Virus genome (UHGV): UHGV-1374556
DNA length: 37,445 nucleotides
Origin: a virus
Direction: 5' to 3' (one strand)
Positions 1,316 to 35,026 of the stretch are shown piece by piece; position 1 is the first letter of the stretch; each line of letters starts with the position of its first letter. Made by a program: the position numbers and the translations under genes. Under the pieces are notes generated by a model, which saw nothing but the letters and a program-made list of their open reading frames with translations, was not told the DNA's origin and did not search any database.

Positions 1316-1331
1316 GTTGCGATATCGCAAC
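1316..1331. promoter_or_regulatory. Palindrome GTTGCGATATCGCAAC, copy 1 of 4
   Basis: Perfect 16-bp palindrome lying 16 nt upstream of the int start codon, just 5' of its RBS GGAAAGGA. Identical copies at 10007, 19785 (14-bp core) and 34997. Confidence 0.7.
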
Positions 1332-1481
1332 TGATTTTGGGTAAAATTAATACGCCCCTTGCCAGGACGTTTCAGGAATGATATAATTTACTTGCTTAAG
1401 GTAATTATATCTTCCGTGGCAGTCCGGTAAGAGAATCTATGCGAAAAGCTCTAGGGGTTTGCGGCTCCTGGGGCTTTCTGC

Positions 1482-2285
1482 TTATTGCTCGGTTGCTATT
1501 AAAGAGTACTTCGCACTTGTACTGATTTCAAAAGTGTAATCGGATTCTAATTTTAAATTACTATAAGAATCCCTTACTATTTCCTTTAAGCGGTCATTTT
1601 TGTCTCTTACGGTCAGACTCCCAATTCCATTTTCTTTGACAACATTATAAACTCCAGATGGAATATCCTTCCCGACCAGATAGTTTCCTGGAGTAAAGCT
1701 AAATGCTTCTGGTTGCGATTCCGATTCTGTATCACTCTTCATGCTCTCAGTGGTTTCGCTTTCGATTGGAACAAGCATCTCGTTTTCAGATTCAGAAGTT
1801 TCTCCATTTTTTTCATCCCAAATATGAGAAAGCACAGAGTTTCTATCCTTATCACACCAAATAGTAATCATAGGGACGTCCCCAACATATTGTGTCCATA
1901 GGACATGGTCATAATCAAACCAATCTTGGTTCATTAATTCATTTATTTGGCTTCCAACAACTTTGGAATCGGCACCTGATAAGGTGGTTATATACAGTAA
2001 CTGCTGCCCATCAACGCGCACCCCCGTCACGGTACTCCCTATAAGATTCGAATATGCATAGTCAGCAACCTTGTCAAAGGAAGTCTCTGCTTGATTAGGG
2101 GAAGACGAGCTATCCTCGTTGGATTGCTGTAATACTGCCGCGTATTCAGATTCCATTTCTGTATTTTTTTCTTTTAGAATATTATATTCCGATTTTAGCC
2201 TATCGTATTCATTCTGCGAAACCCCATTGCTACATGCTGTTAATGAAAGCACAAGCAGGGGGAAAATAATAAAGCGCTTTTTCAT
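1482..2285 (-). CDS. Lipoprotein moron between int and the repressor module (Ltp-like superinfection-exclusion candidate)
   Basis: 267 aa. Signal peptide plus lipobox LSLTAC-S. AT-rich relative to neighbours. AGGAGG RBS upstream of the ATG. Confidence 0.7.
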   Translation of the reverse strand: MKKRFIIFPLLVLSLTACSNGVSQNEYDRLKSEYNILKEKNTEMESEYAAVLQQSNEDSSSSPNQAETSFDKVADYAYSNLIGSTVTGVRVDGQQLLYITTLSGADSKVVGSQINELMNQDWFDYDHVLWTQYVGDVPMITIWCDKDRNSVLSHIWDEKNGETSESENEMLVPIESETTESMKSDTESESQPEAFSFTPGNYLVGKDIPSGVYNVVKENGIGSLTVRDKNDRLKEIVRDSYSNLKLESDYTFEISTSAKYSLIATEQ

Positions 2286-2333
2286 AAAACCTCCTTAGTT
2301 TTGGTTATGCCATTTTTATTAAAAAGCAATAAG

Positions 2334-2771
2334 CTATTTTAATCTTAAATCAAGTAATTCTTCTGGATACCCAGTACATTTGCAGAACTGATTCTTTGTG
2401 CACCCGACATAGCATTTTAGTAGCTCATTATCAATAAGGAGATGGGCTGCAAATATATTTGCCTGTTTTTCTATCCGCGAGGTCAAAAGAAGTGTACTAT
2501 TCTTCATAAACGCACAGTTTTCTTTTGGATGCATTACTGCATGACCAAGTTCGTGCGCCAGAACAACTCGGAGAAATATTGCATCATCGATGTCTGAATT
2601 GAGAAAGATGTATTTCCTTCGTTTTAGCAATTTGTAAAATCCGGCAACAACATCTTCTAACGGTGCCCTGATTATGGTCACACCAAGATAATCCGCAATT
2701 TCTTCCGGGTCACCAGTTTTATATTTTCTTTTTAGATATGAAACAAGTTTTTTTATTTTTTTACTATTCAA
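2334..2771 (-). CDS. immA: ImmA/IrrE-family metallopeptidase (HEXXH), anti-repressor protease
   Basis: 145 aa. LAHELGHAVMH zinc-metalloprotease motif. Sits directly downstream of an XRE repressor as in ImmR/ImmA pairs. TTG start with AGGTGGTGA RBS. Confidence 0.75.
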   Translation of the reverse strand: MNSKKIKKLVSYLKRKYKTGDPEEIADYLGVTIIRAPLEDVVAGFYKLLKRRKYIFLNSDIDDAIFLRVVLAHELGHAVMHPKENCAFMKNSTLLLTSRIEKQANIFAAHLLIDNELLKCYVGCTKNQFCKCTGYPEELLDLRLK

Positions 2772-2795
2772 AGTCCATTCACCACCTAGACCCAG

Positions 2796-3236
2796 TTATT
2801 CCTTTTCAGGTCTGGGCTTATGCTTGTATGGTCGATAGGTTTCTTTGTTCTTAACTTTTGCATCTTCCAACGCTATTTCTATTGCATTCCTCAATAAATC
2901 TACTTTGTTTTTAGGGATTGGTTTGTCATTGTAATATAGAGGGCTATCCTCTCCATCTGCTATTTCCTTCATTATTCGGTCAAGATCTTTTGCAATATTA
3001 CGTTTGTCCCGGGCAGTTAATCCTGGAGCCATCTCTTTGGGTTCATTTTTCCCCGTCATTAAATAATCCACACTCACACCAAAATAATCAGCTATCTTTT
3101 TCATATTGCCACTTTTGGGAGTACTTCGGCCACGTTTCCAGTCGCTGAGCGTAGATTGTGTGACTCCTGTTTCTTTTGACACTTTGTAGGCCGTTACGCC
3201 ATTCTTTTGTAATAATTGTTCAAATATCTCATACAT
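2796..3236 (-). CDS. immR: XRE-family HTH repressor (CI/ImmR-like)
   Basis: HTH motif YKVSKETGVTQSTLSDWKRG. Trimmed to the MYEIFEQ start at 3236, which has a GGTGG RBS. No S24 peptidase domain, consistent with an ImmA-dependent repressor. Confidence 0.8.
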   Translation of the reverse strand: MYEIFEQLLQKNGVTAYKVSKETGVTQSTLSDWKRGRSTPKSGNMKKIADYFGVSVDYLMTGKNEPKEMAPGLTARDKRNIAKDLDRIMKEIADGEDSPLYYNDKPIPKNKVDLLRNAIEIALEDAKVKNKETYRPYKHKPRPEKE

Positions 3237-3291
3237 AATTGTCCACCTTTCACAAACCGCAGACAATACTATGAAAAACCGAAAAATTCTA

Positions 3292-3320
3292 TTGACATTA
3301 TCGGAAATGCATAGTATAGT
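3292..3320 (+). promoter_or_regulatory. Sigma-A-like promoter, TTGACA-17-TATAGT, for the rightward early operon
   Basis: TTGACA at 3292-3297, 17-nt spacer, TATAGT at 3315-3320, within the divergent int/cro-type intergenic region. Confidence 0.55.
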
Positions 3321-3412
3321 ATGAGCATACAAAGGAATTACGTTGTAAAACCTTTGCACACTGCGGAAATGTTATTTACTTCGTCTGATAAACAAAGCAT
3401 ATCACATTTCCG
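3302..3412. promoter_or_regulatory. Three copies of the operator-like half-site CGGAAATG
   Basis: CGGAAATG at 3302-3309 and 3364-3371, with the inverted copy CATTTCCG at 3405-3412. All lie between the divergent repressor and cro-like genes, overlapping the promoter. Confidence 0.5.
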
Positions 3413-3447
3413 TAGCATTTTCAATATTTATATTAAAGAAAGGTGGT

Positions 3448-3666
3448 GTGGTTTTGTACAAAAAATTTGCAGCTTTATTAGAGAAAAGTAACAAAACATC
3501 TTATCAAGTATCTAAAGAGACAGGAATTGCTCAATCTGTTTTATCTGACTGGAAAAATGGCCGTAGCAAACCAAAGTTTGACAAATTGTTAATCCTGGCA
3601 AAATACTTCGGCGTACCAGTAGAGTACTTTGCGGATAGTGAAAAGACAGAAAAGGAGGATACATAA
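3448..3666 (+). CDS. XRE-family HTH, Cro-like regulator
   Basis: 72 aa. HTH YQVSKETGIAQSVLSDWKNG. Divergent from the repressor. GTG/TTG-region start with AAAGGTGG RBS. Confidence 0.8.
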   Translation: MVLYKKFAALLEKSNKTSYQVSKETGIAQSVLSDWKNGRSKPKFDKLLILAKYFGVPVEYFADSEKTEKEDT

Positions 3667-3667
3667 T

Positions 3668-4255: not shown

Positions 4256-4269
4256 GAAGGAGAAAGAGA

Positions 4270-4707
4270 ATGAAAGATTCAAAAATTATTGCAAAACGGT
4301 TATTGATGGATTTGGGAAAAGATGAGTTAAAAGATGGGAAATCAGTAGCGGAAGATATTAGGGTAATGGCAGAGGAGAGTGAAAGTTTTGAAAATGCTGT
4401 GTTCGAAGTTGGAGCCATGAAAATTGCAAAAGATTGCGCAAAACTTTGCAGTAAGGGTGGGGACACGGCAGATAAAGCAGCAGTATGTTTAGATGAAATA
4501 GGATATGACAAAAAGAAAATTAAGAGCCTCAAAAACTGGTGCGTATGTGAAATTGATGGAGGTTATCTTGAGGAAGGTGAGCAGTACATTAGTATGACTT
4601 TCTACAACCCAGCTACTCAAAAGTATGTGGAGTTGGAGTTTGATTCAGATGGATGTGTATTTATTACTGCTCCACACGATACGAAAACGAAGGGAGAAAG
4701 AGGATGA
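4270..4707 (+). CDS. Hypothetical protein whose C-terminal about 60 aa are paralogous to ORF 5593-5820
   Basis: 145 aa with AAGGAG RBS. The C-terminus GEQYISMTFYNPATQKYVELEFDSDG aligns with GERFIQLSFCNPYSSKLAQLRFYEDG of the 75-aa ORF. Confidence 0.6.
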   Translation: MKDSKIIAKRLLMDLGKDELKDGKSVAEDIRVMAEESESFENAVFEVGAMKIAKDCAKLCSKGGDTADKAAVCLDEIGYDKKKIKSLKNWCVCEIDGGYLEEGEQYISMTFYNPATQKYVELEFDSDGCVFITAPHDTKTKGERG

Positions 4708-5564
4708 ATGAGATTATAAAAGTAGGAAACCACAATGTGGTGGAAATCCAGTGGAAGGGACGGAAGGTCATTACCACGGCTCAGCTGGCGGAGGTATATG
4801 AGACCGATGCCAATAACGTGCAAGCTAATTTTGGAAGGAATCAGGAACGTTTTAAAGAGGGAGTACATTATTTTTTGTTGAAGGGGCAGGAGTTGAGGGA
4901 ATTTAAAGACTACCTGACTGATAGTCAGTTAGTTGCTAAGAATGCGCCCTTGCTCTACCTCTGGACTCACCGTGGCGCCAGCCGTCACTGTAAAATACTG
5001 GACACTGAGAAAGCATGGGAGCAGTTCGACAACCTGGAAGAAGCGTATTTTAACCCGCAGTCATCTATTAACATGGATGACCTGGACCCTGATACACAGC
5101 TAATGAATCTGCTTGTTAGAAATATTTCAAAACAGGAGTTGGAGCAGAAGCGACAACGAGAAGAGCAGAAGAGACAGGCTGAAAAATTGGAACAGCTGGA
5201 TGATAGAATTGACGCTATCAAGGAAGTGGTTTCGCTACGTCCAAACGCCTGGAGAAAAGATACTGCCAATATTATAAACAAGATGGCGTTGAAGGCCGGG
5301 GGATATGACCACATAAAGCTTATCAGAGATGAATCCTATCGCATCCTGGAAGAGCGGATGCATGTAGCGCTGAATATTCGTCTCACAAATAAGAAAAAGA
5401 CAATGGCGCTCAATAATGTATGCAAGTCTAAACTGGACAAGTTAAACATACTCGATGTAATTGCGGATGATCCCAAATTGATTGAGGGGTATATATCAGT
5501 TATTAAGGATATGGCAATTAAATATGGAATTGCAGATGCGAAAGACATTTTAAACGAAAACTAA
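4704..5564 (+). CDS. ORF6N-domain phage protein (antirepressor-family N-terminal domain)
   Basis: Motif VVEIQWKGRKVITTAQLAEVYETDANNVQANFGRNQERFKEGVHYF matches the ORF6N pattern. ATGA overlap with the upstream gene. GGGAGAAAGAGG RBS. Confidence 0.6.
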   Translation: MNEIIKVGNHNVVEIQWKGRKVITTAQLAEVYETDANNVQANFGRNQERFKEGVHYFLLKGQELREFKDYLTDSQLVAKNAPLLYLWTHRGASRHCKILDTEKAWEQFDNLEEAYFNPQSSINMDDLDPDTQLMNLLVRNISKQELEQKRQREEQKRQAEKLEQLDDRIDAIKEVVSLRPNAWRKDTANIINKMALKAGGYDHIKLIRDESYRILEERMHVALNIRLTNKKKTMALNNVCKSKLDKLNILDVIADDPKLIEGYISVIKDMAIKYGIADAKDILNEN

Positions 5565-5820: not shown

Positions 5821-5824
5821 TGTT

Positions 5825-6049: not shown

Positions 6050-6168
6050 GACGGAACAATGAGCCGGATAAGATGCAACGGGCGTTGGCAATCATCACAA
6101 TGGTGATGACGATGTTGTATATGTACAAATGCTGGCAGGTGGACCAGCTGGTAAGAATGATATAGGAG
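6046..6168 (+). CDS. Small hydrophobic peptide (40 aa), translationally coupled to the upstream gene
   Basis: MRRNNEPDKMQRALAIITMVMTMLYMYKCWQVDQLVRMI. ATGA overlap with the previous stop. GGGGAG RBS 10 nt upstream. Below the six-frame track size cutoff. Confidence 0.35.
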
Positions 6169-8264: not shown

Positions 8265-8431
8265 CATTTCCAATAGATGAGCAGGTATTTATAGATAGGT
8301 GGTTATCAGCGTTAAATGAGCCAGATGAAGGGGATAGGGAACAGGCAGAGGCCACGGTGCAGACAATCACCCGGGCATATTATGCAGGTTTGGAAGATGG
8401 AAGGAAGGAGACAGCAGCATGCAGAGAATGA
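8261..8431 (+). CDS. Hypothetical small protein (56 aa)
   Basis: ATGA overlap with the upstream stop. Weak RBS. Confidence 0.3.
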   Translation: MTFPIDEQVFIDRWLSALNEPDEGDREQAEATVQTITRAYYAGLEDGRKETAACRE

Positions 8432-8667
8432 TGTGTATATCAGTGGAGCAGCACAACCGGATGATTGAAAGCTATGACAAAGCCATGGAAGAGTTACAGG
8501 AGCTTAGAGAGCTGCTACAGATGACCCCGGGCGACGTGGACGAAGTTGCACCGATGCAACCAAAGGGCCGTCTTAGGGACATTATGGATACCCTTATGTC
8601 GGCTAACGATGAAACCTTGAAGGAAGTTTACTATTTCGTCCAAGGTTATGCAGGGAGGACATATTGA
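8419..8667 (+). CDS. Hypothetical protein
   Basis: 82 aa. AAGGAG RBS, spacing 8. Confidence 0.55.
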   Translation: MQRMMCISVEQHNRMIESYDKAMEELQELRELLQMTPGDVDEVAPMQPKGRLRDIMDTLMSANDETLKEVYYFVQGYAGRTY

Positions 8668-8951: not shown

Positions 8952-9111
8952 AAAAGGAGTTGCCCGGGAATGCAGGAAAAGCATTATGAGCGCATTAAAG
9001 GATGTTGATGACCTTAAATTCCTGCGGCGAATCTACATAAGCATATTGGTTGCTAAAAATGGAAAGGTGGGTGACTGCCATGACAAACGAGCAGCTTGTA
9101 GCACAGATTAA
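8935..9111 (+). CDS. Hypothetical small protein (58 aa)
   Basis: GGTGGAG RBS. Overlaps the sigma-factor start by 32 nt. Confidence 0.3.
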   Translation: MTEEDRKGVARECRKSIMSALKDVDDLKFLRRIYISILVAKNGKVGDCHDKRAACSTD

Positions 9112-10045
9112 GGCCGGAGAGGATGTACAGAAGAACATGGAACAGCTTTATCTGCAGGTGAGGGACTACATTCATTCTGTGGCCATGAAGTACTGTAACA
9201 GCGGAGAGGTGGAGGACCTGGAGCAGGAAGGGTACCTGGCTCTGCATGCAGCCATTGAAAAGTATGACCCTGGCCAGGGTTTTAAATTCCTGACTTATGC
9301 AGCGTATTACATCCGGCAGGGGATGCAGCGTTACCTGCAGGTGAATGGGAGCTGCCTGCGTCTGCCGGTCCATTGCCAGGAGAAGATACAGAGGTACAAC
9401 CGGTTTTGTCAATCGTTCAAGATGGAGCATGGCAGGAAACCCACGGATACTGAGATTGCAGCAGGGCTGGACCTTATTTTGGAGCAGGTATGGGAAATCA
9501 AGGAGAATGCCCGGGCAATTCACCTGGGCAGCCTGGATGCTCCAGTTATGGGGATAGAAGGCGGTGAGGATGCCACCGTGGGAGAATTGACTGGAGATGA
9601 TACGGATGTAGAGGGAGAGGTTGTAGAACAGATCCAGGACGGGCAGCTTAAGGATATATTGTGGGGATGTGTGGATGCTCTCCCGGACCGGCAGCCGGAG
9701 GTGATACGGAAACGGTATCAGCAGGACATGACCCTGGCTGAAATCGGAAAAACATATGGAGTCACTGCAGAGGCAGTAAGGCAGACACATGCGAAAGCAT
9801 TGCGGGAATTACGGAAACCCAGAGCCGCCAAGCAGCTGCGCCCATTTCTTCCGGGAGTGGGAATCTATGAAGGCGGCATTGATAGCTTTAACAGGACGTG
9901 GACCAGCAGTACCGAAAGGGCAGCACTCAGTATGGCTGAGTCCATGGAGATAGAGGAACGAAGGCGGGAGAAACACATGGAGCTGCTGGATAAAATAAGG
10001 GCGAAAGTTGCGATATCGCAACAGAAGGGAGAACAACATGAATAA
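9080..10045 (+). CDS. Phage-encoded sigma-70 family RNA polymerase sigma factor with a roughly 70-aa C-terminal extension
   Basis: Region 2 EDLEQEGYLALHAAIEKYDPGQGFKFLTYAAYYIRQGMQRYL. Region 4 MTLAEIGKTYGVTAEAVRQTHAKALRELRK. Start at MTNEQ with AAAGGTGGGTG RBS. Confidence 0.85.
   Translation: MTNEQLVAQIKAGEDVQKNMEQLYLQVRDYIHSVAMKYCNSGEVEDLEQEGYLALHAAIEKYDPGQGFKFLTYAAYYIRQGMQRYLQVNGSCLRLPVHCQEKIQRYNRFCQSFKMEHGRKPTDTEIAAGLDLILEQVWEIKENARAIHLGSLDAPVMGIEGGEDATVGELTGDDTDVEGEVVEQIQDGQLKDILWGCVDALPDRQPEVIRKRYQQDMTLAEIGKTYGVTAEAVRQTHAKALRELRKPRAAKQLRPFLPGVGIYEGGIDSFNRTWTSSTERAALSMAESMEIEERRREKHMELLDKIRAKVAISQQKGEQHE
10007..10022. promoter_or_regulatory. Palindrome GTTGCGATATCGCAAC, copy 2 of 4
   Basis: Lies inside the 3' end of the sigma-factor gene, encoding VAISQQ. 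It is 15 nt upstream of the next start codon (10038), directly 5' of its RBS GAAGGGAGA. Confidence 0.7.
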
Positions 10046-10403
10046 AGAAGAGATAAAGAAAATTGTGGTGGACTATATAAACAAGAATGAATCGGCCAGC
10101 TATGCGGAACTGCAGTGGCTGTTTGAGGAGAAGGGCTATGACTACAAAGGAGAACTGCTGTCCTGTTCGGATGTCTGCGAACATGTGGTGTTCTGGAGTG
10201 GCTGGAATGCGGAAGCCTTTGACCTGATGACGGAGCTGTTGCATGAGGAAGTGGTCCACCGGGAGCCGGCACATCCCTTGCGGTATCTTTTAGATGGGGC
10301 CGGGCTTACCCTGCCAAAAGTACAGCGCGCGGTGCAGTATAAGACGGATCACTGGGCGCCGGTGGTGTTTATAAAGGGGCAAGATTCGAGGGCGGCAGAA
10401 TGA
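10038..10403 (+). CDS. Hypothetical protein
   Basis: Start at MNKEEIKK with GGGAGA RBS. 121 aa. Confidence 0.55.
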   Translation: MNKEEIKKIVVDYINKNESASYAELQWLFEEKGYDYKGELLSCSDVCEHVVFWSGWNAEAFDLMTELLHEEVVHREPAHPLRYLLDGAGLTLPKVQRAVQYKTDHWAPVVFIKGQDSRAAE

Positions 10404-11676: not shown

Positions 11677-11838
11677 GTGTTGATACAGGTCAAGATTGTA
11701 GGGAATGGAAACAGTCTCATATTTGACTGCGACCTCAATGACTATGGTCACCTCATATGGCTCCTGGAAATGGCCTGGGAAAGGGATTATGACATTTATA
11801 TTCGCGAAGTCAGGCCGGGTGATTCAGATGAGCAATGA
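11677..11838 (+). CDS. Hypothetical small protein
   Basis: AAAGGAG RBS, spacing 8, to a GTG start. The frame stays open back to 11656. Confidence 0.35.
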   Translation: MLIQVKIVGNGNSLIFDCDLNDYGHLIWLLEMAWERDYDIYIREVRPGDSDEQ

Positions 11839-12589
11839 AGATAAAAATTGGGTGAAGGTGAATAGGACAGTTCAAAGTCACTGGGTATGGATGGACAAGC
11901 CTTTTTCAAGAGGGCAGGCCTGGATTGATTTGATACTGCTGGCGCAGCATCAGGATGGCACTTTTACAGACAGACGAGGAAATCTCATTGACGGAAAGCG
12001 CGGCTGCGTATACCGGAGCGAGCGTTTTTTGGCCGAAAGATGGGGATGGAGCCGGAAAAAGTTAGCTAACTATCTATTGCGGTTAGAACAGGATAACATG
12101 ATAGAAGTGGACAAAAAGAGAGCCAGTGAAAGAACCACCATTTTCATCGTAAATTATGAGACTTTTCAGGGTAAAGGGGCCAGTAAAGGAGCCAGTGGGG
12201 AGCCAGTGGGGAACCAGTCGGGAGCCAGTGGGGAACCAGTCGGGAACATAAACAAGAATGTAAAGAAGGATAAGAATGTAAAGAAGGATAAAGAAAATAA
12301 ATATCCCGCGCTTTTTGAATCTTTTTGGGGAGTGTATCCGAGAAAGAAGGAGAAAGCAAAAGCCTTTAAGTGTTTTCAAACCAGAGTCAACGAAGGATGC
12401 AGTGAGGCGGCTCTTATAGAAGCGGCAAAGGCCTATGCAGAGGAATGTGATGCACAAAGGCAGGAGGAAAGGTTTATTAAGTATCCGGCCACATTTTTGG
12501 GACCCAATAGGCCGTACGAAGATTATTTATTGCGAGAAGGCAAAGAGGCGGTCCCGACAACAACGAAAGATGGGAGGATCCTGCAATGA
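11828..12589 (+). CDS. Replisome organiser / replication initiator-like protein (DnaD-like winged-helix N-domain) with a repeat-encoded linker
   Basis: Start at MSNEDKNW overlapping the upstream stop. N-domain WVWMDKPFSRGQAWIDLILLAQ...YRSERFLAERWGWSRKKLANYL. Linker GASGEPVGN x2 and NVKKDK x2 encoded by tandem DNA repeats. Confidence 0.6.
   Translation: MSNEDKNWVKVNRTVQSHWVWMDKPFSRGQAWIDLILLAQHQDGTFTDRRGNLIDGKRGCVYRSERFLAERWGWSRKKLANYLLRLEQDNMIEVDKKRASERTTIFIVNYETFQGKGASKGASGEPVGNQSGASGEPVGNINKNVKKDKNVKKDKENKYPALFESFWGVYPRKKEKAKAFKCFQTRVNEGCSEAALIEAAKAYAEECDAQRQEERFIKYPATFLGPNRPYEDYLLREGKEAVPTTTKDGRILQ
12178..12292. repeat. Tandem direct repeats inside the replisome-organiser gene (putative ori iterons)
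   Basis: AGCCAGTGGGGAACCAGTCGGG, 22 bp x2, at 12201-12244, with partial copies from 12178. AATGTAAAGAAGGATAAG, 18 bp x2, at 12257-12292. Confidence 0.5.
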
Positions 12590-14640
12590 AATTTGATGAG
12601 AATGAAATCCGAAAAGCCATCTCCATCATGAAACCAAAAAACAGCCTTTTTGAAATCCGGGTCATTGCCGCAGGAGGCGGGAATGCAAGCGGTTATTTCC
12701 GCGACGCGGATACCTGTATTAATGCAATGCGGGGAATCCGCATGGATGGAAACAGCAATGTATATATCACACTGAATGGAATTAAGGATGAATGCCATTC
12801 CAGGCAGCAGAGAAATTGTTTTGTGCGCAATGCAAAACCTAACACATCTGATTCGGATATCTATTGTTTTGATTGGCTGATGGTGGACATGGATCCGGTC
12901 CGCGCAGCCGGCACGTCATCCAGCGAGGAGCAGATTGACTATGCGAAAGAAAAATGTAATGAGGTCTATGCCTTTATGAAACGGACCGGATTTGATGATC
13001 CGATTGTGGCTTTTAGCGGGAATGGGGCACACCTCCTGTATAGTATCGGCCTGGCAATGAATGATGAGAACAAGCAGCTGGTGAAGGACTGCCTGGCGGT
13101 ACTGTCCCTATTCTTTTCTGACGACAAGGTTGACATTGACACGGCCAACTTCAATCCGGCCAGGGTGTGCAAGCTGTATGGTACTCTGGCGCAGAAAGGG
13201 GCCAATACACCGGAGCGGCCGCACAGGATGAGTTATATCGTGCAGGCGCCGGAGAATCCAAAACAGAATGACAAGGCACTGCTGCAGAAACTGGCAGGCT
13301 ACCTGCCGGTCCCGGACAAGCCGCAGGGCTACAACCGGTTTAATCCCAGGGAGTTTGACCTGGACCAGTGGCTGGATGAGCATGGCCTGCATTACACCAA
13401 AGCCAGTTATGGCAGCGGAACCAAGTACATACTGGAGCATTGCCCCTTTGATGAAAACCATACAGGGAAGGATGCCTGTATATTCAAGATGTCTAACGGC
13501 GCCATTGGGTTCCACTGTTTCCACAACTCCTGCGCAGACAGGACCTGGCAGGATGTCCGCAGGATGTTTGAACCGGACGCCTATGACCGGCAGTATGTGA
13601 GGGAGGAGAGGCGGCCAAACTACCAGAACCCCAATTATGTGGTGGAGAAAAAGACGGAAATCAAAATGGTTGATGGCCAGCCGGTATTCTTTACCACGGA
13701 ACAGATCCGACTTATGGAGGAGCCGCCGGAAGAATTTATCAAGACCGGGGTCGATGTGATAGATCAGAAGATGCGCGGGCTTAAGAAAGGGTTTGTCACT
13801 TGTCTGAGTGGACTGAGGGCTGCGGGGAAGTCCAGCATCATCTCTCAGATAACGGTTGAGGCTTCCCAGCAGGGATACCGGACGGCACTATTCAGCGGGG
13901 AGCTTAAGCCTAAGAACCTGCTGAAATGGCTCCTTCTGCAGGCTGCCGGGAAGATGTATGTGAAAGAAACCCAGTATGATAATTATTATGTGGTACCGGA
14001 ACCTTATGACGAGGTTATATCCAAATGGCTGGATGAAAAAGTGTACGTCTATAACAACTATTACGGCAATGAGTTCAGTTCCATCATGGAGCAGATACGC
14101 AAGTGTGTTGTGGAGCATAAGGTTGACCTTATAATTCTGGATAACATGATGGCGCTGAACCTGATGGAGATGGGCAGCGACAAGTACCAGCAGCAGAGCC
14201 ATTTTGTGGAATGCCTGGAGAATTTTGCAAAGGCTGCAAATGTCCATATCCTGTTCGTGGCACATCCCAGGAAGTCCGTTGGATTCCTTCGGCTGGATGA
14301 TGTGTCCGGAAGCAATGACATCGTGAACCGTGTGGATAATGCTTTTATTCTGCACAGGGTCAACAATGACTTCAAGCGATTGACAAAATGCATGTTCAAG
14401 TGGAAGGATGACAACCTACTGTATCAGTCCACCAATGTGATTGAAATATGCAAGGACCGCGATGGCGGCGTACAGGATGAGTTTATCCCGCTATTCTTTG
14501 AGGCTTGCACGAAGCGTCTTAGGAACAGCCCGGGGGAGAATAAGATATACCCATGGAAGGAAGAAATGGCGAAACTATTTGGAAATGATACCGGGAAGTT
14601 TGAGTCTGTACCTTTAGGTGAGGAGCTACCGTTTAGTTAA
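12586..14640 (+). CDS. Bifunctional primase-polymerase (AEP-type) / DnaB-like helicase fusion protein
   Basis: 684 aa. DWLMVDMDP acidic AEP motif. Zinc motif CPFDENHTG...HCFHNSC. Walker A GLRAAGKSS, Walker B LIILDNMM and HILFVAHPRK in the C-terminal half. ATGA overlap and GGGAGG RBS. Confidence 0.7.
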   Translation: MKFDENEIRKAISIMKPKNSLFEIRVIAAGGGNASGYFRDADTCINAMRGIRMDGNSNVYITLNGIKDECHSRQQRNCFVRNAKPNTSDSDIYCFDWLMVDMDPVRAAGTSSSEEQIDYAKEKCNEVYAFMKRTGFDDPIVAFSGNGAHLLYSIGLAMNDENKQLVKDCLAVLSLFFSDDKVDIDTANFNPARVCKLYGTLAQKGANTPERPHRMSYIVQAPENPKQNDKALLQKLAGYLPVPDKPQGYNRFNPREFDLDQWLDEHGLHYTKASYGSGTKYILEHCPFDENHTGKDACIFKMSNGAIGFHCFHNSCADRTWQDVRRMFEPDAYDRQYVREERRPNYQNPNYVVEKKTEIKMVDGQPVFFTTEQIRLMEEPPEEFIKTGVDVIDQKMRGLKKGFVTCLSGLRAAGKSSIISQITVEASQQGYRTALFSGELKPKNLLKWLLLQAAGKMYVKETQYDNYYVVPEPYDEVISKWLDEKVYVYNNYYGNEFSSIMEQIRKCVVEHKVDLIILDNMMALNLMEMGSDKYQQQSHFVECLENFAKAANVHILFVAHPRKSVGFLRLDDVSGSNDIVNRVDNAFILHRVNNDFKRLTKCMFKWKDDNLLYQSTNVIEICKDRDGGVQDEFIPLFFEACTKRLRNSPGENKIYPWKEEMAKLFGNDTGKFESVPLGEELPFS

Positions 14641-15586: not shown

Positions 15587-15784
15587 ATGAATGAATTTGG
15601 ACAAAGACTCTCTGAGTTGATGAAGAAAAATCAAATGTCAGCATATCGGTTGGCTAAGGAGTTGGATATTCACCAGACTACGATAAAAAATTGGCGTGAA
15701 GGCAAGTGCGAACCTATGGCAAGTCATATAGTGAGCATTGCAATAATATTCAACGTTACATGTGATTATTTGTTAGGGAGGTAA
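15587..15784 (+). CDS. XRE-family HTH regulator
   Basis: 65 aa. HTH MSAYRLAKELDIHQTTIKNWREG. Confidence 0.7.
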   Translation: MNEFGQRLSELMKKNQMSAYRLAKELDIHQTTIKNWREGKCEPMASHIVSIAIIFNVTCDYLLGR

Positions 15785-15789: not shown

Positions 15790-16209
15790 TTGGAATTGAC
15801 AGAAAATGAAAAGAAGAAGGAGTTCCTGATGTCCTATCAGAAGGAGAAGCGGCGGGTCCGGCGTTTGGAAGAGCAGTTGGAAGAACTGAGGCGGAATAAA
15901 ATGTCTCCTTCTGTCACCAATGACGGGATGCCTCATGGTACGGATAAGAAGGATTTGTCTGATTACGCAGTGAAGGTGGACGAGATAGAGCAGGAACTGG
16001 TTGCAGCCCGGTACTGCCGGATATGTGCATTTCAGGAGGTACAGAAGCGGATTGAGGCTATGGAGGATGAGAGAGAAAAGGATTTGCTTACATACCGGTA
16101 TCTTAAGGGGCTTAAATGGGAAGAGGTTGCTGTACGAATGGGATATAGCTGGAGGAAAATACACTATCTACATAGTGATGCCTTGGAGCATTTTGAAATT
16201 TGTGCATAG
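15790..16209 (+). CDS. DUF1492 / ArpU-RinA-like late transcriptional regulator (sigma-70 region-4-like)
   Basis: Motif SPSVTNDGMPHG...VDEIEQEL...YRYLKGLKWEEVAVRMGYSWRKIHYLHSDALEHF matches the DUF1492 pattern. Sits upstream of the packaging genes. TTG start with GGGAGG RBS. An alternative ATG at 15829 has an AAGGAG RBS. Confidence 0.65.
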   Translation: MELTENEKKKEFLMSYQKEKRRVRRLEEQLEELRRNKMSPSVTNDGMPHGTDKKDLSDYAVKVDEIEQELVAARYCRICAFQEVQKRIEAMEDEREKDLLTYRYLKGLKWEEVAVRMGYSWRKIHYLHSDALEHFEICA

Positions 16210-17569: not shown

Positions 17570-17653
17570 ACACACTTCGGGACACCGACGCCCCACCTCC
17601 AAACACACAAAATCTTAGAAATGAGAATATCGGCCCAGAAGGAAGGTGATAGG

Positions 17654-19784: not shown

Positions 19785-19798
19785 TTGCGATATCGCAA
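19785..19798. promoter_or_regulatory. Palindrome TTGCGATATCGCAA, copy 3 of 4 (14-bp core)
   Basis: Starts the base after the terL stop codon. Lies 21 nt upstream of the portal ATG, 5' of the AGGAG RBS. Confidence 0.7.
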
Positions 19799-19819
19799 TA
19801 GAGAGAGGAGTGATTGCAT

Positions 19820-21064
19820 ATGTGGTCCTTTCGGTTGAGGGCAGACCCGGAACCAGAGAAAAAAGAAACAGAGTCTAATGAGGATGCATTGCTGAGGGCC
19901 AGTCTGTCGGATGACTACATGACCAGGGACCAGGCCATGAACGTGCCGGCCTTTGCGGCCTGTGTGAATAAGATAGCGGAAACCGTTTCAACCATCCCTG
20001 TTCGGCTTTATAGGCTGGTGGATGGGAAGCTGGAAGCAGTTGAGGATGATGCCAGGGTTCGACTGCTAAATGATGATACCGGGGACACCCTGGATGGGGT
20101 GCAGTTCAAGCGGGCGCTGGTCAGGGACTATCTGACCGGGAAAGGCGGTTATGCTTTCATCAACCGGACCGGGAACCAGATAAGGTCCCTGCATTATGTC
20201 AGGGAATCTGAGGTATCCTTCCTGTTCACATCAGACCCGATTTTTAAGGACTACGACATCATGATTCAAGGGACGAAATATAAGCCCTTTGAATTTCTGA
20301 AAGTGCTCAGGAATACGGAGGATGGACGTTCCGGCAGGAGTGTGGTGGATGAGAACAGTGAAGTCCTGAGCGTAGTCTACCATTCCCTGAAGTACGAAAA
20401 GAACTTGGTCAAGACCGGCGGCAATAAGAAAGGGTTTATCAAGTCGGCAAAAAAACTGGCAGAACCGGCCATTAAGGCATTAAAGGCGGCATGGCACAGA
20501 CTTTACCAGAACAACACGGAAAATGTCGTCATATTGAACGAGGGGTTAGAGTTCCAGGAAGCCAGTAACACATCCGTGGAGATGCAGCTGAATGAGAACA
20601 AGAAAACCAACAGTGACGAAATCTGTAAGCTGTTCAACATGCCGCCGGCCATGATAAACGGCGGCGCCACGGAGCAGGATAAAACAAACTTCGTCCAGTA
20701 CTGCCTGAACCCAATCTTAAAAGAATTTGAGTGTGCCCTGAACCGGGACCTGCTTCTTGAATCAGAGAAGGGGTCCTTTTATTTTGCAACGGATACGTCG
20801 GAGCTGACGAAAGGGGACATTGAAAAACGTTTCCGGGCCTATGAAACGGCCTGTAAGAACGGATTCATGCAGATTGATGAAATACGGCGGTGGGAGAACA
20901 TGCCGCCATTGGGATTGGATTTTGTCCGCCTGGGTCTGCAGGATGTGCTGTATGACCCGGTGACAAAACAGTTTTATATGCCAAACATGAACCAAACCGG
21001 CGGACTCGGACAGAAAGAGTCAGAGCCGGTGCAGAAAGAAGGTGAAAAGAAAAATGAGGATTGA
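19820..21064 (+). CDS. Portal protein, HK97 family
   Basis: About 414 aa with portal-like composition. Sits between terL and the prohead protease. AGGAG RBS. Confidence 0.85.
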   Translation: MWSFRLRADPEPEKKETESNEDALLRASLSDDYMTRDQAMNVPAFAACVNKIAETVSTIPVRLYRLVDGKLEAVEDDARVRLLNDDTGDTLDGVQFKRALVRDYLTGKGGYAFINRTGNQIRSLHYVRESEVSFLFTSDPIFKDYDIMIQGTKYKPFEFLKVLRNTEDGRSGRSVVDENSEVLSVVYHSLKYEKNLVKTGGNKKGFIKSAKKLAEPAIKALKAAWHRLYQNNTENVVILNEGLEFQEASNTSVEMQLNENKKTNSDEICKLFNMPPAMINGGATEQDKTNFVQYCLNPILKEFECALNRDLLLESEKGSFYFATDTSELTKGDIEKRFRAYETACKNGFMQIDEIRRWENMPPLGLDFVRLGLQDVLYDPVTKQFYMPNMNQTGGLGQKESEPVQKEGEKKNED

Positions 21065-33604: not shown

Positions 33605-33607
33605 TTA

Positions 33608-33862
33608 TTATGATGGCTTATTAAACTTCCAAACCTGTTTCCATCTTTGACCGTCATAAAAATCATACCAGATACCGGTGTTGTTAAATGCGATTGACGC
33701 AATCTCACCGTTTTCATAGTAGAGCTGGAATGCCCGGTCGGTTCGGTCGGAATACACGGCTGTAAAACCATTAATATTCTTGACGCCGTTTAAAGTCACC
33801 TTTGCATTGGTTTTTGCTAAATTGCTATTTTGTGATAAGAAAAAATGAATCGTAACCTGCAA
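33608..33862 (-). CDS. Convergent antisense ORF (84 codons) of unknown function filling the post-fibre gap
   Basis: Only long open frame in a 320-bp stretch where all three plus-strand frames are closed. TTG start with AGGGA 6 nt upstream. Folded-domain-like sequence IWYDFYDGQRWKQVWKF. Confidence 0.45.
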   Translation of the reverse strand: MQVTIHFFLSQNSNLAKTNAKVTLNGVKNINGFTAVYSDRTDRAFQLYYENGEIASIAFNNTGIWYDFYDGQRWKQVWKFNKPS

Positions 33863-33928
33863 ATCAGGTCCCTAAACCAGGGGCTTATTTTATTGCCCGG
33901 CAGGCCGCTGGGCGGAAAGGAAAAATAA

Positions 33929-34339
33929 ATGAATGAAAAGATTGTATTGAAAAACGGGAAGGAGTACCCGCTGGTCATCGGCGGCACGTCCTCCACACCC
34001 CACACTCTGCAGCTTATCTTCCAGGCGGAGGAACCCTTGGAGGACATCGTGACCGTGTTTGCGGATGCTGCAGCCACGGAGCAGATTAAGACTGTCAATG
34101 ATGATGGCAGCACATTGCTGATGTACGATGGTTATACAGTACTGAATGACCCAAAGAGTATTGATGACAACTATCTTATTACCCCGGAGCAGTACGGAGA
34201 GGACGGAGCCGTCACTGCGGAGGCTGTATATGGCCGTGTGGCGCTCCTAACGCTCTCCCAGCCGGGTGTAGGGGTGCAGGTGGATAAACTTAGGGCCGAT
34301 GTCGATTACGTGGCTATTATGGCCGGTATTGATTTATAG
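33929..34339 (+). CDS. Hypothetical protein (XkdW-like position)
   Basis: 136 aa between the fibre gene and XkdX. Confidence 0.55.
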   Translation: MNEKIVLKNGKEYPLVIGGTSSTPHTLQLIFQAEEPLEDIVTVFADAAATEQIKTVNDDGSTLLMYDGYTVLNDPKSIDDNYLITPEQYGEDGAVTAEAVYGRVALLTLSQPGVGVQVDKLRADVDYVAIMAGIDL

Positions 34340-34353
34340 GAGGAGATGAGACC

Positions 34354-34488
34354 ATGGATGTGAAAGCATTAGCGATAAAGTATTACCCAAAGCTGTGGGA
34401 CATTGACCGGCTTAAGGCCCTGGTGGCCGCGGGTAAACTGTCCGAGGCGGACTACAAGGAGATTACCGGAGAGGACTACACAAAATAA
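34354..34488 (+). CDS. xkdX: XkdX-family small phage protein
   Basis: 44 aa, MDVKALAIKYYPKLWDIDRLKALVAAGKLSEADYKEITGEDYTK. AGGAGG RBS. Immediately upstream of the holin. Below the track cutoff. Confidence 0.7.
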   Translation: MDVKALAIKYYPKLWDIDRLKALVAAGKLSEADYKEITGEDYTK

Positions 34489-34509
34489 AGAAGGGCGAGG
34501 TATATTAAA

Positions 34510-34953
34510 ATGGATAAGGTGAAAGCAGCGTTTGTTGCAGCATTTAGCATGATTTTTGGATGGTTGGGAATTCTGGCAGTTCCCGTGCTTATACTGGCTG
34601 GATTGAATTTTACAGACTACATAACCGGTATCCTGGCATCAAAACGGCGCAATGAGCTGGTGACCAGTGACAAGGGACTGTGGGGCATCGTCAAGAAGAT
34701 AGGTATGTGGATATTGGTGGGATTAGGATGGGCTATGGATGTGCTGATTAATTATGCCGGCCAGTATGTAGGACTGTCTATTAAACTGCCCTTCGTGGTT
34801 GCTACCATCGTGGCAGTATGGCTTATATGTAATGAGATAATCAGCATCCTGGAAAATCTGCTGGATATCGGCGTGGCCATGCCGCCATTTTTAATGCCGC
34901 TGGCCAGGATGATTAAGGGGCAGGTTGAAGATAAGACAAAAATGGATACCTGA
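34510..34953 (+). CDS. Holin
   Basis: 147 aa with three predicted TM helices and a charged C-terminus, immediately upstream of the endolysin. Confidence 0.8.
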   Translation: MDKVKAAFVAAFSMIFGWLGILAVPVLILAGLNFTDYITGILASKRRNELVTSDKGLWGIVKKIGMWILVGLGWAMDVLINYAGQYVGLSIKLPFVVATIVAVWLICNEIISILENLLDIGVAMPPFLMPLARMIKGQVEDKTKMDT

Positions 34954-34996
34954 GAGGAGGTGGTCCGCATATCTCCCGCCGCGGGGTTAAGCGGGC

Positions 34997-35026
34997 GTTG
35001 CGATATCGCAACTTGTGACGTCACAA
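34997..35026. promoter_or_regulatory. Palindrome GTTGCGATATCGCAAC (copy 4 of 4) abutting a second perfect palindrome TTGTGACGTCACAA
   Basis: 16-bp palindrome at 34997-35012 is directly followed by a 14-bp palindrome at 35013-35026 in the holin-endolysin intergenic region. Confidence 0.7.

Follow-up and report, generated by a model that had tools for sequence, protein, structure and literature searches.

A family of 16-bp palindromes as candidate portable junctions in mosaic temperate phages of Lachnospiraceae

Introduction

In the modular theory of phage evolution, short common sequences at module boundaries (the linkers of Susskind and Botstein, the 'boundary sequences' of HK620) were reportedly suggested to direct homologous exchange. 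Lambdoid phages offer few examples, which are non-palindromic and form no recurring family. P1 (GTTGCGATATCGCAAC) is likewise a short shared sequence at module boundaries, but in contrast to the lambdoid linkers it is a single 16-mer recurring in 250 or more different contexts. P1 is one of a family of 16-bp perfect palindromes of the form GTTGY-N6-RCAAC, apparently not described before, which in prophages of gut Lachnospiraceae supply a rare, tangible candidate for the 'linkers' that have long been invoked to account for phage mosaicism.

Centromere sites of the parS/ParB type, including the dispersed sites of plasmid prophages, are perfect palindromes of 14–16 bp that occur in a few dispersed copies and are tolerated in genes. 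P1 resembles them in all these respects; however, its sequence is unrelated to TGTTNCACGTGAAACA, the phage is integrative, and neither ParA nor ParB is encoded in the window, the whole 37,445-nt stretch of viral DNA analysed here.

In T4-like phages, composite promoter/stem-loop cassettes termed PeSLs mediate modular shuffling (PMC2839356, PMC4122927). Both PeSLs and P1 are short conserved intergenic motifs that flank variable, mostly accessory genes and mark the exchange point between otherwise unrelated sequences, with stem-loop terminators and with filled as well as empty slots. PeSLs are longer and non-palindromic, carry a strong sigma-70 early promoter and belong to lytic myoviruses of Gram-negative hosts, whereas P1 is a perfect 16-bp palindrome with no recognisable promoter, occurs in temperate siphoviruses of Firmicutes, has interchangeable core variants and is also found in frame within genes.

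Three repeat systems of mycobacteriophages are also comparable. Cluster A stoperators lie in many copies in short intergenic gaps, with a lineage-specific consensus; they are asymmetric, oriented with transcription and bound by a monomeric immunity repressor, and the site also serves as the early-promoter operator (PMC9283540, PMC6550527). P1 is similarly one short site in many copies across a temperate phage genome, but it is symmetric and absent from the immunity region, and P1 phages carry different repressors. The Cluster K SAS and ESAS are repeats of unknown function directly 5' of the start codons of unrelated genes: SAS is non-palindromic and contains a Shine-Dalgarno core, and ESAS, which immediately precedes the RBS-like SAS, is an inverted repeat whose imperfect 17-bp repeats are separated by a variable spacer and whose consensus differs between sublineages (PMC3203893). 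P1 shares the position immediately upstream of unrelated genes' starts; it differs in being a gapless perfect palindrome without a Shine-Dalgarno sequence, and neither SAS nor ESAS is reported as a mosaic joint. The 17-bp dyad repeats of Cluster O, with more than 30 copies per genome and a varying central 3 bp, are predicted to bind a dimer, and their authors see few if any taking part in insertions (PMC4351075). Like P1 they are short, dyad-symmetric, partly intergenic and partly intragenic, and predicted to act on DNA; P1, in contrast, has 4–6 copies per genome and is itself the joint.

Results

A scan of the window located exact copies of P1 at 1316, 10007 and 34997, together with a 15/16 copy at 19784 that reads GTTGCGATATCGCAAT and retains an exact 14-mer core (19785–19798). 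Shuffled windows contained a mean of 0.04 P1 matches and four copies in 0/100 shuffles, in agreement with the initial annotation, which had reported four copies in 37 kb and held that they could not be chance; its view of a dedicated, non-random cis element is supported. The copies and adjoining elements are as follows.

P1 copy 1, 1316–1331, unstranded: exact 16-bp palindrome abutting the int RBS (minus strand) on its 5' side
P1 copy 2, 10007–10022, unstranded: exact, within the final codons of the sigma gene
P1 copy 3, 19784–19799, unstranded: 15/16, final base T, at the portal junction
P1 copy 4, 34997–35012, unstranded: exact, 3' of the holin gene
P2, 35013–35026, unstranded: perfect 14-bp palindrome TTGTGACGTCACAA, related to P1 and abutting copy 4
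Intrinsic terminator, 35035–35066, plus strand: strong, with a 9-bp G+C-rich stem (35035–35056) followed by a T-run; completes the P1-P2-terminator unit 5' of the endolysin RBS

The contexts that had been described for the four copies could be refined. Copy 1, noted before the int RBS, lies immediately upstream of GGAAAGGA and ends 16 nt ahead of the start codon of int (ATG at 1299, minus strand); a divergent sRNA-like promoter has its -35 box 28 bp away, and in loci L397 and L413 the same slot is occupied by P5 (GTTGCGACGTCGCAAC). Copy 2, noted in the last sigma codons upstream of the next gene, is 15 nt 5' of ATG 10038, the start of a gene encoding 121 aa (10038–10403), and the sigma ORF ends ..K VAISQ QKGEQHE*. 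Copy 3, described as following the terL stop, in fact shares a base with it: the first G of the 16-mer is the third base of the stop codon TAG, with the RBS and portal ATG downstream. Copy 4, noted in the holin-endolysin gap, is the first element of a conserved unit P1-P2-terminator-RBS-endolysin, with the endolysin start at ATG 35109 and not at GTG 35015; P2 was found in 28 distinct contexts among viral loci. The int gene served by P1 is on the minus strand of the window, and the other P1-served genes are on the plus strand. The hexamer GATATC is enriched in the window, with 27 copies against 9.0 expected.

The family cores include GATATC, GACGTC, ACCGGT, GCCGGC and AACGTT, and the dominant cores, CGATATCG, CGACGTCG, CACCGGTG, CGCCGGCG, TGACGTCA and ACAATTGT, are all palindromic through the centre. 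Different members fill identical slots in different phages and lineages. A palindrome may stand between a stop codon or terminator and an RBS, may be followed by a terminator, or may lie in frame within an acidic inter-domain protein linker, and P1 sits only at such places, where 16 extra bp would be harmless. Read in frame, P1 gives VAISQ in at least four unrelated proteins, whose C-terminal parts differ past the palindrome. Usually one type is found per lineage, namely P1 in close relatives and P4 or P3 where the RinA-like protein is 46–51% identical. Three types are nevertheless present together in one genome, and tandem arrays of unlike members occur (P1-P2, and P1-P3-P2c in L154).

The initial annotation foresaw neither this family, nor the interchangeability of its members at one slot, nor an exact role at mosaic joints, and it had missed two sites in the window, the second of which is weak.

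P3-like palindrome GTTGCACCGATGCAAC, 8545–8560, unstranded: one mismatch, in frame (VAPMQ) within an 82-aa ORF (8419–8667)
Possible family member TTGTATATGTACAA, 6115–6128, unstranded: one mismatch, abuts ATG 6129, membership uncertain

The site at 8545 is a perfect TTGCACCGGTGCAA in the orthologues L104, L494, L496 and L498, and the C-terminal parts of the 82-aa ORF homologues diverge immediately past the palindrome. The sequence TTGTATATGTACAA is also found in L495 and L497.

Mosaic joints were assessed by an unbiased k-mer test on 128 loci (1.13 Mb) fetched by protein homology alone. Among the 25,926 14-mers recurring in at least six of these loci, P4, P1 and P3 showed the greatest numbers of unrelated flank groups to the left and to the right. 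Pairs drawn from 251 unique P1 sites had exactly one flank in common in 440 cases and both in 164; on the unshared side, identity stopped within 2 nt of the 14-mer core (1–2 nt from the 16-mer edge) in 368 of the 440. Comparison of the phage sequences places the start or stop of similarity at the edge of P1. Certain flanks act as hubs: that of P2-terminator-endolysin joins 13 different partner flanks, T1-terminator flanks join nine each, and that of the 121-aa gene joins seven.

Three junction surveys were carried out independently of the motif. The endolysin unit, found via its downstream sequence alone, had P1 in 52/52 loci (43 exact), preceded by at least six unrelated upstream sequences. 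For the 121-aa gene, 16 loci were retrieved by protein homology and P1 was present at all 15 readable junctions, following four unrelated classes of upstream sequence, one of them without the whole sigma module (L373); in L374 the homologue has diverged to 68% identity, yet P1 is still 16/16. At the TerL-portal junction, P1 is exact in most close relatives and decayed in L297–L299; L301 cleanly lacks 17 bp there, and L302–L306 have P3 at that very position. The placement at module junctions that had been described is supported, inter-phage homology breaking exactly at copies 2, 3 and 4.

Gene slots, both filled and empty, have P1 at one end and a conserved terminator at the other. In SPP1-like relatives, T1-P1-RBS is followed by one of at least four unrelated small genes, among them a Tad2-like anti-Thoeris gene, and then by the conserved terminator T2, and slots without a gene (P1-GGAAA-T2) occur as well. 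Elsewhere, a T1-P3-RBS insertion splits a minor capsid gene, and in L074 a one-sided joint runs from sigma codon 14 straight into the outer edge of P1. An XerC/D-like tyrosine recombinase adjoins P3-gene-P3 in about 15 loci, all from one group of related phages.

In bacterial genomes, among the matches listed, an excess of P1 over chance is confined to prophages of Enterocloster, Hungatella, Lacrimispora and other Lachnospiraceae. Among the 120 genome matches listed, 40 have a prophage-like context and the remainder are at chance level, being scattered singletons in unrelated phyla that agree with the approximately 139 expected by chance in 596 Gb; counts of P1 refer to matches listed and, as many IMG/VR contigs are related, do not represent independent events. 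P1 is also present in the complete isolate chromosomes of Hungatella hathewayi DSM 13479 and Lacrimispora xylanisolvens and is therefore not an assembly artefact. In line with the earlier remark that no such site was known, no description of P1 was found in the literature, Rfam families, or cultured-phage or plasmid records.

Proteins that might bind P1 were compared across loci, and co-occurrence and co-variation did not support any of the three candidates named in the initial annotation. The 65-aa XRE protein was found in only 3 of 18 P1-bearing relatives. The DUF1492/RinA-like protein has a recognition helix that differs among members of the P1 group but resembles that of the P4 group. The sigma gene is missing from relatives that keep P1 at the 121-aa gene (L366–369, L373). 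A CI-like repressor found no support either: the inverted repeat of the CI/Cro region is another one, and P1 phages differ in their repressors. Near P1-family sites across loci, no protein family recurred except structural and lysis genes. No sigma-70-type promoter was found adjoining copies 2, 3 or 4.

Discussion

We tentatively favour, at a little under even confidence, a reading of P1 as a portable junction at the DNA level, a recombination linker offering a shared crossover point at which Lachnospiraceae temperate phages would swap modules, single-gene cassettes and protein domains. Judged by sequence comparison alone, exchange would occur through crossover inside the common palindrome, helped by the near-identical AGAAAGGAG RBS or T-rich tail beside it, for a similarity of perhaps 25–40 bp in all. 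The crossover could be carried out by the homologous recombination functions of phage or host, or by template switching promoted by a hairpin. The variable 6-bp core would set which copies pair, and thereby a compatibility group or gene pool, while full dyad symmetry would make a cassette usable in either orientation.

Since, by the logic of the PeSLs, any conserved cis-regulatory motif would become a crossover point as well, the joints are no proof of selection for linking. Against a linker, 16 bp is short for RecA-type recombination, the L074 joint is not a crossover within a common P1, and single-junction copies decay or vanish at TerL-portal. The intact P1 beside diverged flanks in L374 calls for active maintenance, for which a pure linker model accounts only by repeated exchange or gene conversion. 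A role in expression might explain why P1 stays intact.

A rival reading, possible but on balance doubtful, makes P1 an operator or roadblock on duplex DNA for a putative symmetric dimeric protein of phage or host; dispersed copies of P1 would, like stoperators, insulate or silence prophage modules (int, replication genes, portal, endolysin), the junction behaviour being a by-product of sharing a conserved site. Dyad symmetry that is perfect through the centre in all major family members, several copies per genome of mainly one type per lineage, tolerance within genes and the preservation of P1 next to diverged flanks all fit this proposal, and the Cluster A stoperators (PMC9283540) and Cluster O repeats (PMC4351075) provide precedents. 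However, no matching binding protein emerged, as XRE-65 and the RinA-like, sigma and CI-like proteins all failed the co-occurrence or co-variation tests; copies 2, 3 and 4 have no sigma-70-type promoter beside them; the CI/Cro immunity region carries another inverted repeat; a single genome harbours three types, and types also stand in tandem; and single sites are dispensable (L301).

An RNA hairpin with a 6-bp stem and AUAU loop, also raised in the initial annotation, is an unlikely explanation. It would act in 5' untranslated or intercistronic RNA by stabilising the 5' end, by guiding endonucleolytic processing or, as a translational operator, from just before the Shine-Dalgarno sequence, and in Bacillus mRNA is stabilised by 5' stem-loops and by ribosome binding near the 5' end. 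For so small a structure, the predicted hairpin is stable (-6.9 kcal/mol, z = -4.65); it adjoins a 16S-complementary, STAB-SD-like element, and decays mainly at the four central (loop) positions and less at stem positions 5, 6, 11 and 12. An RBS and start codon lie within about 25 nt on one side in 41 of 99 unique P1 sites, 29 of which have a T-rich terminator tail on the opposite side, but RBS adjacency is little informative because in packed operons tolerated inserts must fall between the stop codon and the Shine-Dalgarno sequence. Several features weaken the case for RNA: loops need no self-complementarity, yet the centres ATAT, ACGT, CCGG and AATT all have it; P1 is invariant while adjoining terminator stems vary with compensatory changes; among sense-strand variants, A-C mismatches (GTTACG..) are as common as G-U pairs, and decayed copies show no G-U bias; and in-frame copies in mid-gene and copies before terminators have no RBS to serve.

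Less probable still is a dedicated symmetric recombinase or nuclease of a phage cassette-exchange system, with two subunits bound to constant arms GTTGC/GCAAC and the 6-bp core as the overlap matched between partners. The architecture of constant arms around a variable palindromic core would suit such an enzyme, as would joints at the exact outer edge (L074 included), the clean 17-bp difference in L301, the insertion into the minor capsid gene and the recombinase beside P3-gene-P3. That neighbourhood, however, derives from a single group of related phages, no such enzyme co-occurs with P1-family sites across loci, and the integrase is the only one encoded in the window. We know of no tyrosine or serine recombinase site with arms nearly as short as 5 bp.

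Finally, a generic host repeat, restriction-related motif, chance or assembly artefact is highly improbable and largely refuted: the P1 core does contain the over-represented GATATC, but the shuffles, the concentration of listed matches in Lachnospiraceae prophages with singletons at chance density elsewhere, and the copies in two complete isolate chromosomes all speak against it.

Palindrome copies in the phage genome

Gene annotation identified the window as a temperate siphovirus prophage with the following features.

163-1299, minus strand: integrase (int)
2334-2771: ImmA-like peptidase
2796-3359: XRE repressor
4653-5564: ORF6N antirepressor
9050-10045: sigma-70-family sigma factor
11705-14640: DnaD-like and DnaB-like replication genes
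15587-15784: 65-aa XRE protein
15790-16209: RinA/DUF1492-like regulator
16956-21064: HNH, TerS, TerL and portal
34510-34953: holin
35109 (start ATG): NlpC/P60 endolysin

The 16-bp palindrome P1 (GTTGCGATATCGCAAC) is present in exact copies at 1316, 10007 and 34997 (copies 1, 2 and 4). The copy at 19784 (copy 3) reads GTTGCGATATCGCAAT and retains the exact 14-mer core at 19785-19798. Dinucleotide-preserving shuffles contained a mean of 0.04 P1 matches, and four copies were found in 0 of 100. The placement of four copies at module junctions, as described in the initial annotation, was correct, with three refinements. Copy 2 is read through by the sigma ORF as VAISQ, and the first G of copy 3 is the final base of the TerL stop codon TAG. 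Copy 4 is directly abutted by a second palindrome, P2 (TTGTGACGTCACAA, 35013-35026), followed by a strong terminator at 35035-35056; with P2 and this terminator behind copy 4, GTG 35015 is not the endolysin start. Besides four P1 and one P2, the window contains a decayed copy of a third palindrome, P3, at 8545, which is perfect in the orthologues L104, L494, L496 and L498 (L-numbers denote comparison loci from other phages and prophages).

A palindrome family in Lachnospiraceae phages

The 1.86 Mb of viral loci should contain about 1.8 perfect TTG-N8-CAA palindromes in total by chance, but far more were observed, and they fall into the members listed below.

Table. Palindromes in 1.86 Mb of viral loci (name, sequence, distinct contexts)
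P1, TTGCGATATCGCAA, 121
P2, TTGTGACGTCACAA, 28
P3, TTGCACCGGTGCAA, 5
P4, TTGCGCCGGCGCAA, 4

A second scan, with a pattern consisting of the outer arms and ribosome-binding site (RBS) only (GTTG-N8-CAAC-N-GAAAGGAG), gave 90 distinct contexts among the matches listed. The inner eight bases were CACCGGTG in 19, CGATATCG in 14 and CGACGTCG (P5) in 14 of the 90 listed contexts, and 50 of the 90 were perfectly palindromic. Most imperfect contexts were one change away from a perfect member, usually within the central four positions. Different members occupy the same slots: P1, P3, P4 or P5, depending on the phage, after the tail of the conserved terminator T1; P1 or P5 on the 5' side of int, where the adjoining sRNA promoter is the same; and P1 or P3 between TerL and portal. 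In L154, three different members stand in tandem, adjoining a terminator.

P1 gave at least 120 matches in viral contigs, spread over many contigs with G+C of 0.37-0.54; the IMG/VR contigs are partly redundant, and duplicates were removed by flank comparison. Bacterial genomes were scanned at one genome per species (596 Gb), for which approximately 139 chance matches to a 16-bp palindrome are expected. Homologues of viral-locus ORFs were encoded at 40 of the 120 genome loci listed, all assigned from the titles of the genome records to Enterocloster, Hungatella, Lacrimispora, [Clostridium] clostridioforme and other Lachnospiraceae. Among the matches listed, all of those in Lachnospiraceae (these 40 loci) were prophage-like, and the remainder were chance-level singletons in unrelated phyla, with no common context. 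The initial annotation had asked whether the motif is abundant across the host chromosome; above chance, and among the matches listed, P1 is confined to prophages. A REP/BIME-type host repeat was rejected on the same listed matches, and a generic host repeat, a restriction-related motif or a chance or assembly artefact is hardly credible. As judged from this distribution, the palindromes constitute a portable perfect-palindrome family restricted to Lachnospiraceae phages. The initial annotation knew of no phage regulatory site with this sequence, in agreement with our searches: Rfam, queried both with the gathering threshold and with E ≤ 1 as cut-off, gave no hit to P1, no relevant paper in the literature contained the P1 sequence (the 14-mer occurs in one irrelevant paper), and none of the cultured phage and plasmid records carried P1-containing units.

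Palindromes mark the joints between modules

Three junction surveys retrieved loci without use of the motif. Starting from the endolysin unit, the sequence downstream of P2, P1 was found in 52 of 52 loci (43 exact, 6 ATTGCG.., in which a TAA stop codon gives the A, 2 GTTACG.. and 1 decayed), preceded by at least six unrelated sequences. The 121-aa protein encoded at 10038-10403 led to 16 loci, with P1 before the RBS in all 15 readable junctions, which fell into four upstream classes. The upstream sequence was the sigma C-terminus in the first class, an unrelated ORF in the second (L366-369), and in the third the stop codon of the 82-aa gene that holds P3, with the entire sigma module missing (L373). 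In the fourth it was a diverged sigma (L374), where P1 is conserved at 16 of 16 positions although the protein encoded behind it has only 68% identity. A truncated sigma gene, ending after codon 14, is fused to the outer edge of P1 in L074.

The third survey, of 80 loci found via the portal protein, located P1 in close relatives, joined to a different TerL end in L294 and L313 and decayed at the TerL-portal junction of L297-L299. In L301, exactly 17 bp are missing at this junction and the RBS directly follows the stop codon. P3 stands at the same spot in relatives of 71-73% identity, and no palindrome was found there in relatives of ≤68% identity among the 80 loci.

Comparison of 251 unique P1 sites revealed 440 pairs sharing one flank only and 164 sharing both; on the unshared side, 368 of the 440 one-flank pairs lose identity no more than 2 nt from the 14-mer core. 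The P2-terminator flank was found with 13 partner classes, and the T1 flanks with 9 each. In 128 loci retrieved solely via protein homology, 25,926 14-mers were shared by six or more loci, and P4, P1 and P3 were the top recurrent 14-mers for unrelated flank groups on both sides. The comparisons place the ends of homology, for modules, cassettes and domains alike, exactly at the palindromes.

Arrangement of the sites, gene cassettes and in-frame copies

Three arrangements were distinguished. In the first, T1 (stem ATACCACC../..GGTGGTAT, with compensatory variants), a T-rich tail, P1 and an immediate strong RBS, (A/G)GAAAGGAG, precede the start of widely differing genes, with a stop codon in place of the terminator in a variant form. 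In the second, a stop codon is followed by P1, then by P2 or a P2 variant, then by a conserved terminator and the endolysin RBS, and in the third P1 lies in frame within genes. P1 usually adjoins a conserved terminator, either T1 before it or P2 and its terminator after it. An RBS and start codon lie within about 25 nt on one side at 41 of 99 unique sites in the P1-anchored viral sample, 29 of these 41 having a T-rich tail on the opposite side. P1 itself contains no Shine-Dalgarno sequence, and is separated from the start codon by 11-25 nt. The palindromes are evidently placed where 16 bp are harmless.

In SPP1-like relatives, T1-P1-RBS occupies the gap from the head-morphogenesis gene to the scaffold gene; the small gene behind it differs between loci, with at least four unrelated types encoding the following products.

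113-aa protein with no assigned function
Tad2-like anti-Thoeris protein (PF11195, E = 2e-21)
protein with a weak, sub-threshold DUF4406 match (E = 0.0017, 19.2 bits vs a cut-off of 22)
71-aa protein

A second conserved terminator, T2 (CACGCGGGAYTATCCYGGGTG and a T-run), lies directly 3' of the stop codon of each slot gene, and an empty slot, P1-GGAAA-T2, was found in L027, L103 and L485-487. Examples of this accessory slot are L037:7094-7630, L070:1170-1850, L043, L071 and L006. In L405, T1-P3-RBS splits the gene for minor capsid protein 2, which is intact in L037.

Intragenic P1 is always read as GTT GCG ATA TCG CAA (VAISQ); at least four unrelated proteins carry it in acidic linkers. The C-terminal parts diverge past it in several pairs (L018 vs L062, L168 vs L179), and likewise differ past the P3 site in the 82-aa protein family. 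Two intragenic non-P1 sites use another frame (TTGCACCGGTGCAA in L504 and TTGCAACGTTGCAA in L506/L515); because of these P3/P4-type sites, reading-frame constancy was counted as weak support only.

Proposed exchange at the palindromes and comparison with known systems

Two accounts exist of the joints in mosaic phage genomes, random illegitimate recombination followed by selection, and exchange at conserved linkers; the debate dates from the modular theory, and concrete testable linkers are few. From sequence comparison, on which all of the analysis rests, the most likely mechanism, advanced tentatively, is that the palindromes provide shared micro-homology where exchange takes place. A similar neighbouring RBS or T-rich tail would aid exchange at the palindrome, and core variants would decide which copies can pair. 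Full symmetry would permit exchange in either orientation (compare int, on the minus strand), and may promote hairpin-induced template switching.

In hundreds of contexts from gut phages, exact joints coincide with P1 or a sister palindrome; among them are swaps of terminase against portal, loss or gain of the sigma module, replacement of the gene preceding the endolysin unit, the anti-defence slot and in-frame domain swaps. P1 offers a defined sequence for mutation, crosses and pull-down in cultivable Enterocloster, Hungatella and Lacrimispora, and the palindromes would aid the delimitation of modules and accessory slots in gut virome annotation.

The PeSL motifs of T4-like phages are junction motifs (PMC2839356, PMC4122927) of the same logic, and like them P1 is a conserved short intergenic motif flanking variable (ORFan) genes, at an exchange point between unrelated sequences. 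However, P1 is minimal, promoter-less and palindromic. PeSL carries a strong sigma-70-type early promoter, whereas promoter scans detected nothing resembling a promoter at copies 2, 3 and 4 or next to them; the sole strong promoter, near copy 1, faces away from P1 and belongs to an sRNA-like gene. PeSL also has a terminating stem-loop; P1 alone forms a 6-bp hairpin, lacking a T-run in three of four copies, but usually has a conserved terminator beside it.

Other short motifs repeated in phages include stoperators (PMC9283540), SAS/ESAS (PMC3203893) and the Cluster O dyad repeats (PMC4351075). The stoperators of Cluster A are asymmetric, oriented with transcription, and serve as the early lytic promoter operator for the immunity repressor, whereas P1 is a perfect palindrome whose family is absent from the immunity region of the window. 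SAS/ESAS of Cluster K lie a few nt from the start codon and contain a Shine-Dalgarno core; P1 shares neither property, with an RBS and start at only 41 of 99 sites. A parS/ParB centromere needs a cognate ParB (and ParA), and Pfam and PHROG scans found none among the window proteins. Integron attC sites are imperfect palindromes of 57-141 bp with R''/L''/L'/R' boxes and extrahelical bases, recombined by the adjacent IntI. By inspection, their outer sequences are RYYYAAC..GTTRRRY, whereas P1 is a 16-bp perfect palindrome with the opposite GTT..AAC arrangement. Hairpins of the boxB/nut and coat-protein operator kind are recognised on the transcript, and their loops are free of symmetry constraint; the P1-family centres are self-complementary in all major variants, a property that a loop would not need. 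Four features are new: a minimal form as a perfect palindrome, cores that can replace one another, copies used in frame within genes, and the marked regularity of the joints in temperate gut phages.

Several other identities for P1 were rejected. As a promoter, it fits none of the sigma-70, extended -10 or sigma-54 (TGGCAC-N5-TTGCW) spacings or Bacillus sporulation-sigma consensuses across flank variants when judged by eye, in agreement with the promoter scans. As an intrinsic terminator, it has a 6-bp stem (-6.9 kcal/mol) and a T-rich tail at copy 1 alone, on the plus strand. The reading as two abutted transposon ends was dismissed, since lone half-sites flank nothing in the window. Comparison of the left end with the region beyond 35.85 kb revealed no direct repeat indicative of attachment sites.

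Candidate binding proteins

A possible but distinctly less probable reading is that P1 is an operator or roadblock for a putative dimer, which would account for the persistence of intact P1 beside diverged flanks. The binders suggested in the initial annotation, the XRE, DUF1492 and sigma proteins, did not follow the palindromes. The 65-aa XRE protein occurs in only 3 of 18 P1-bearing relatives, and sigma is absent from L366-369 and L373, which retain P1. The RinA/DUF1492-like protein shows at least 77% identity among P1 phages and 46-51% for P4/P3 phages. Its C-terminal recognition helix, however, differs from one P1 phage to another while being similar across the two groups; the HTH does not co-vary with palindrome type.

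CI/Cro was rejected because its region has other operators: the immunity region (3360-3450) contains a different inverted repeat, CGGAAATGT..ACATTTCCG, and no member of the palindrome family. This 24-nt repeat (3361-3415), in the divergent XRE/Cro-like intergenic region, is likely the immunity operator, unrelated to P1. A CI-like gene is present in few P1 loci only. Pfam and PHROG scans of the window proteins, also at relaxed E-value, revealed no ParB or other hidden DNA-binding protein, and when 9,559 ORFs from 284 loci were clustered all against all, no regulator family recurred near the sites; the comparison loci are 5-20 kb long, so distant binders would escape detection.

Action on DNA or RNA

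The central four bases are self-complementary in all major members (ATAT, ACGT, CCGG, AATT). If the element folded as a hairpin, they would make up the loop, which has no need of symmetry. Conversion of P1 to P5 and then P2 needs paired symmetric changes, one of them at the two central bases. Sense-strand variants include A-C mismatches (GTTACG.. in L243, L268 and L297) and a G-U pair (..CAAT).

The initial annotation had offered an RNA hairpin as an equal alternative to an operator. Such a hairpin is physically plausible (-6.9 kcal/mol), and the excess variation at loop positions agrees with it, but it leaves unexplained the needless symmetry of the loop, the A-C mismatches, and the copies in mid-gene or upstream of terminators, which have no RBS to serve. 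Proximity to the Shine-Dalgarno sequence is a weak argument in its favour, as tight operons force tolerated inserts between the stop codon and the Shine-Dalgarno sequence. We therefore consider the RNA hairpin improbable, and favour action of the palindromes on duplex DNA.

Less probable still is a dedicated exchange system, in which a symmetric recombinase or nuclease would act on the GTTGC/GCAAC arms and the 6-bp core would set compatibility groups, by analogy with the spacer variants of lox and FRT. If so, Lachnospiraceae phages would hold a minimal integron-like machinery for cassette and domain shuffling, working both in intergenic gaps and in frame inside genes. Should a binding protein or dedicated enzyme exist, the system would be new. 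In L424 (2050-3700), a XerC/D-like tyrosine recombinase of 333 aa is followed by P3, an ArpU/RinA-like regulator, a second P3 and TerS. The recombinase and P3-gene-P3 arrangement is found in L424 and about 14 related loci, belonging to one group of related phages, and we regard it as a lead, not as evidence.

Neighbouring elements

A conserved sRNA-like gene (1359-1480, plus strand) diverges from int. It has a strong promoter (TTGCCA-17 nt-TGaTATAAT), a body of some 90 nt that includes a CCGGnnnnTCCGG hairpin, and a terminator at 1445-1477; compensatory changes affect the terminator stem in 8 other loci. Rfam gave no family for this gene. Copy 1 is bracketed by an 11-nt inverted repeat (1300-1312/1374-1384), with one arm at the int start codon and Shine-Dalgarno sequence (minus strand) and the other at the sRNA promoter's -10 region; L042 and L077 show co-variation of the repeat. 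In the RNAfold structure, the int Shine-Dalgarno sequence is base-paired to this repeat, which suggests sequestration of the int translation start.

GATATC occurs 27 times in the window, compared with 9.0 ± 3.2 in shuffles (0 of 100 reach 27), and P1 accounts for only 4 of the 27 sites. About 3.5 kb upstream of the portal gene in L280, L285, L287, L292, L295, L305, L306, L312 and L357, the sequence CCCGGGGGGATACC, which has no copy in the window, recurs with its left flank conserved but with right flanks that are unrelated; it could be a cos motif of the packaging region or a further joint.

The strong intrinsic terminator between the holin and endolysin genes (35035-35066) is conserved in more than 50 loci, so endolysin expression must use read-through, antitermination or an unseen promoter. 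Beside copy 4, at 34956-34996, GAGGAGGTGGTCC is almost perfectly complementary to the 3' end of 16S rRNA and has no ORF behind it; ATCTCCC, able to pair with it, and a G+C-rich hairpin come next. This unit is found elsewhere on either side of P1 (for example in L052, L185 and L036), and could represent a STAB-SD-type mRNA stabiliser or a relic RBS from a lost cassette.
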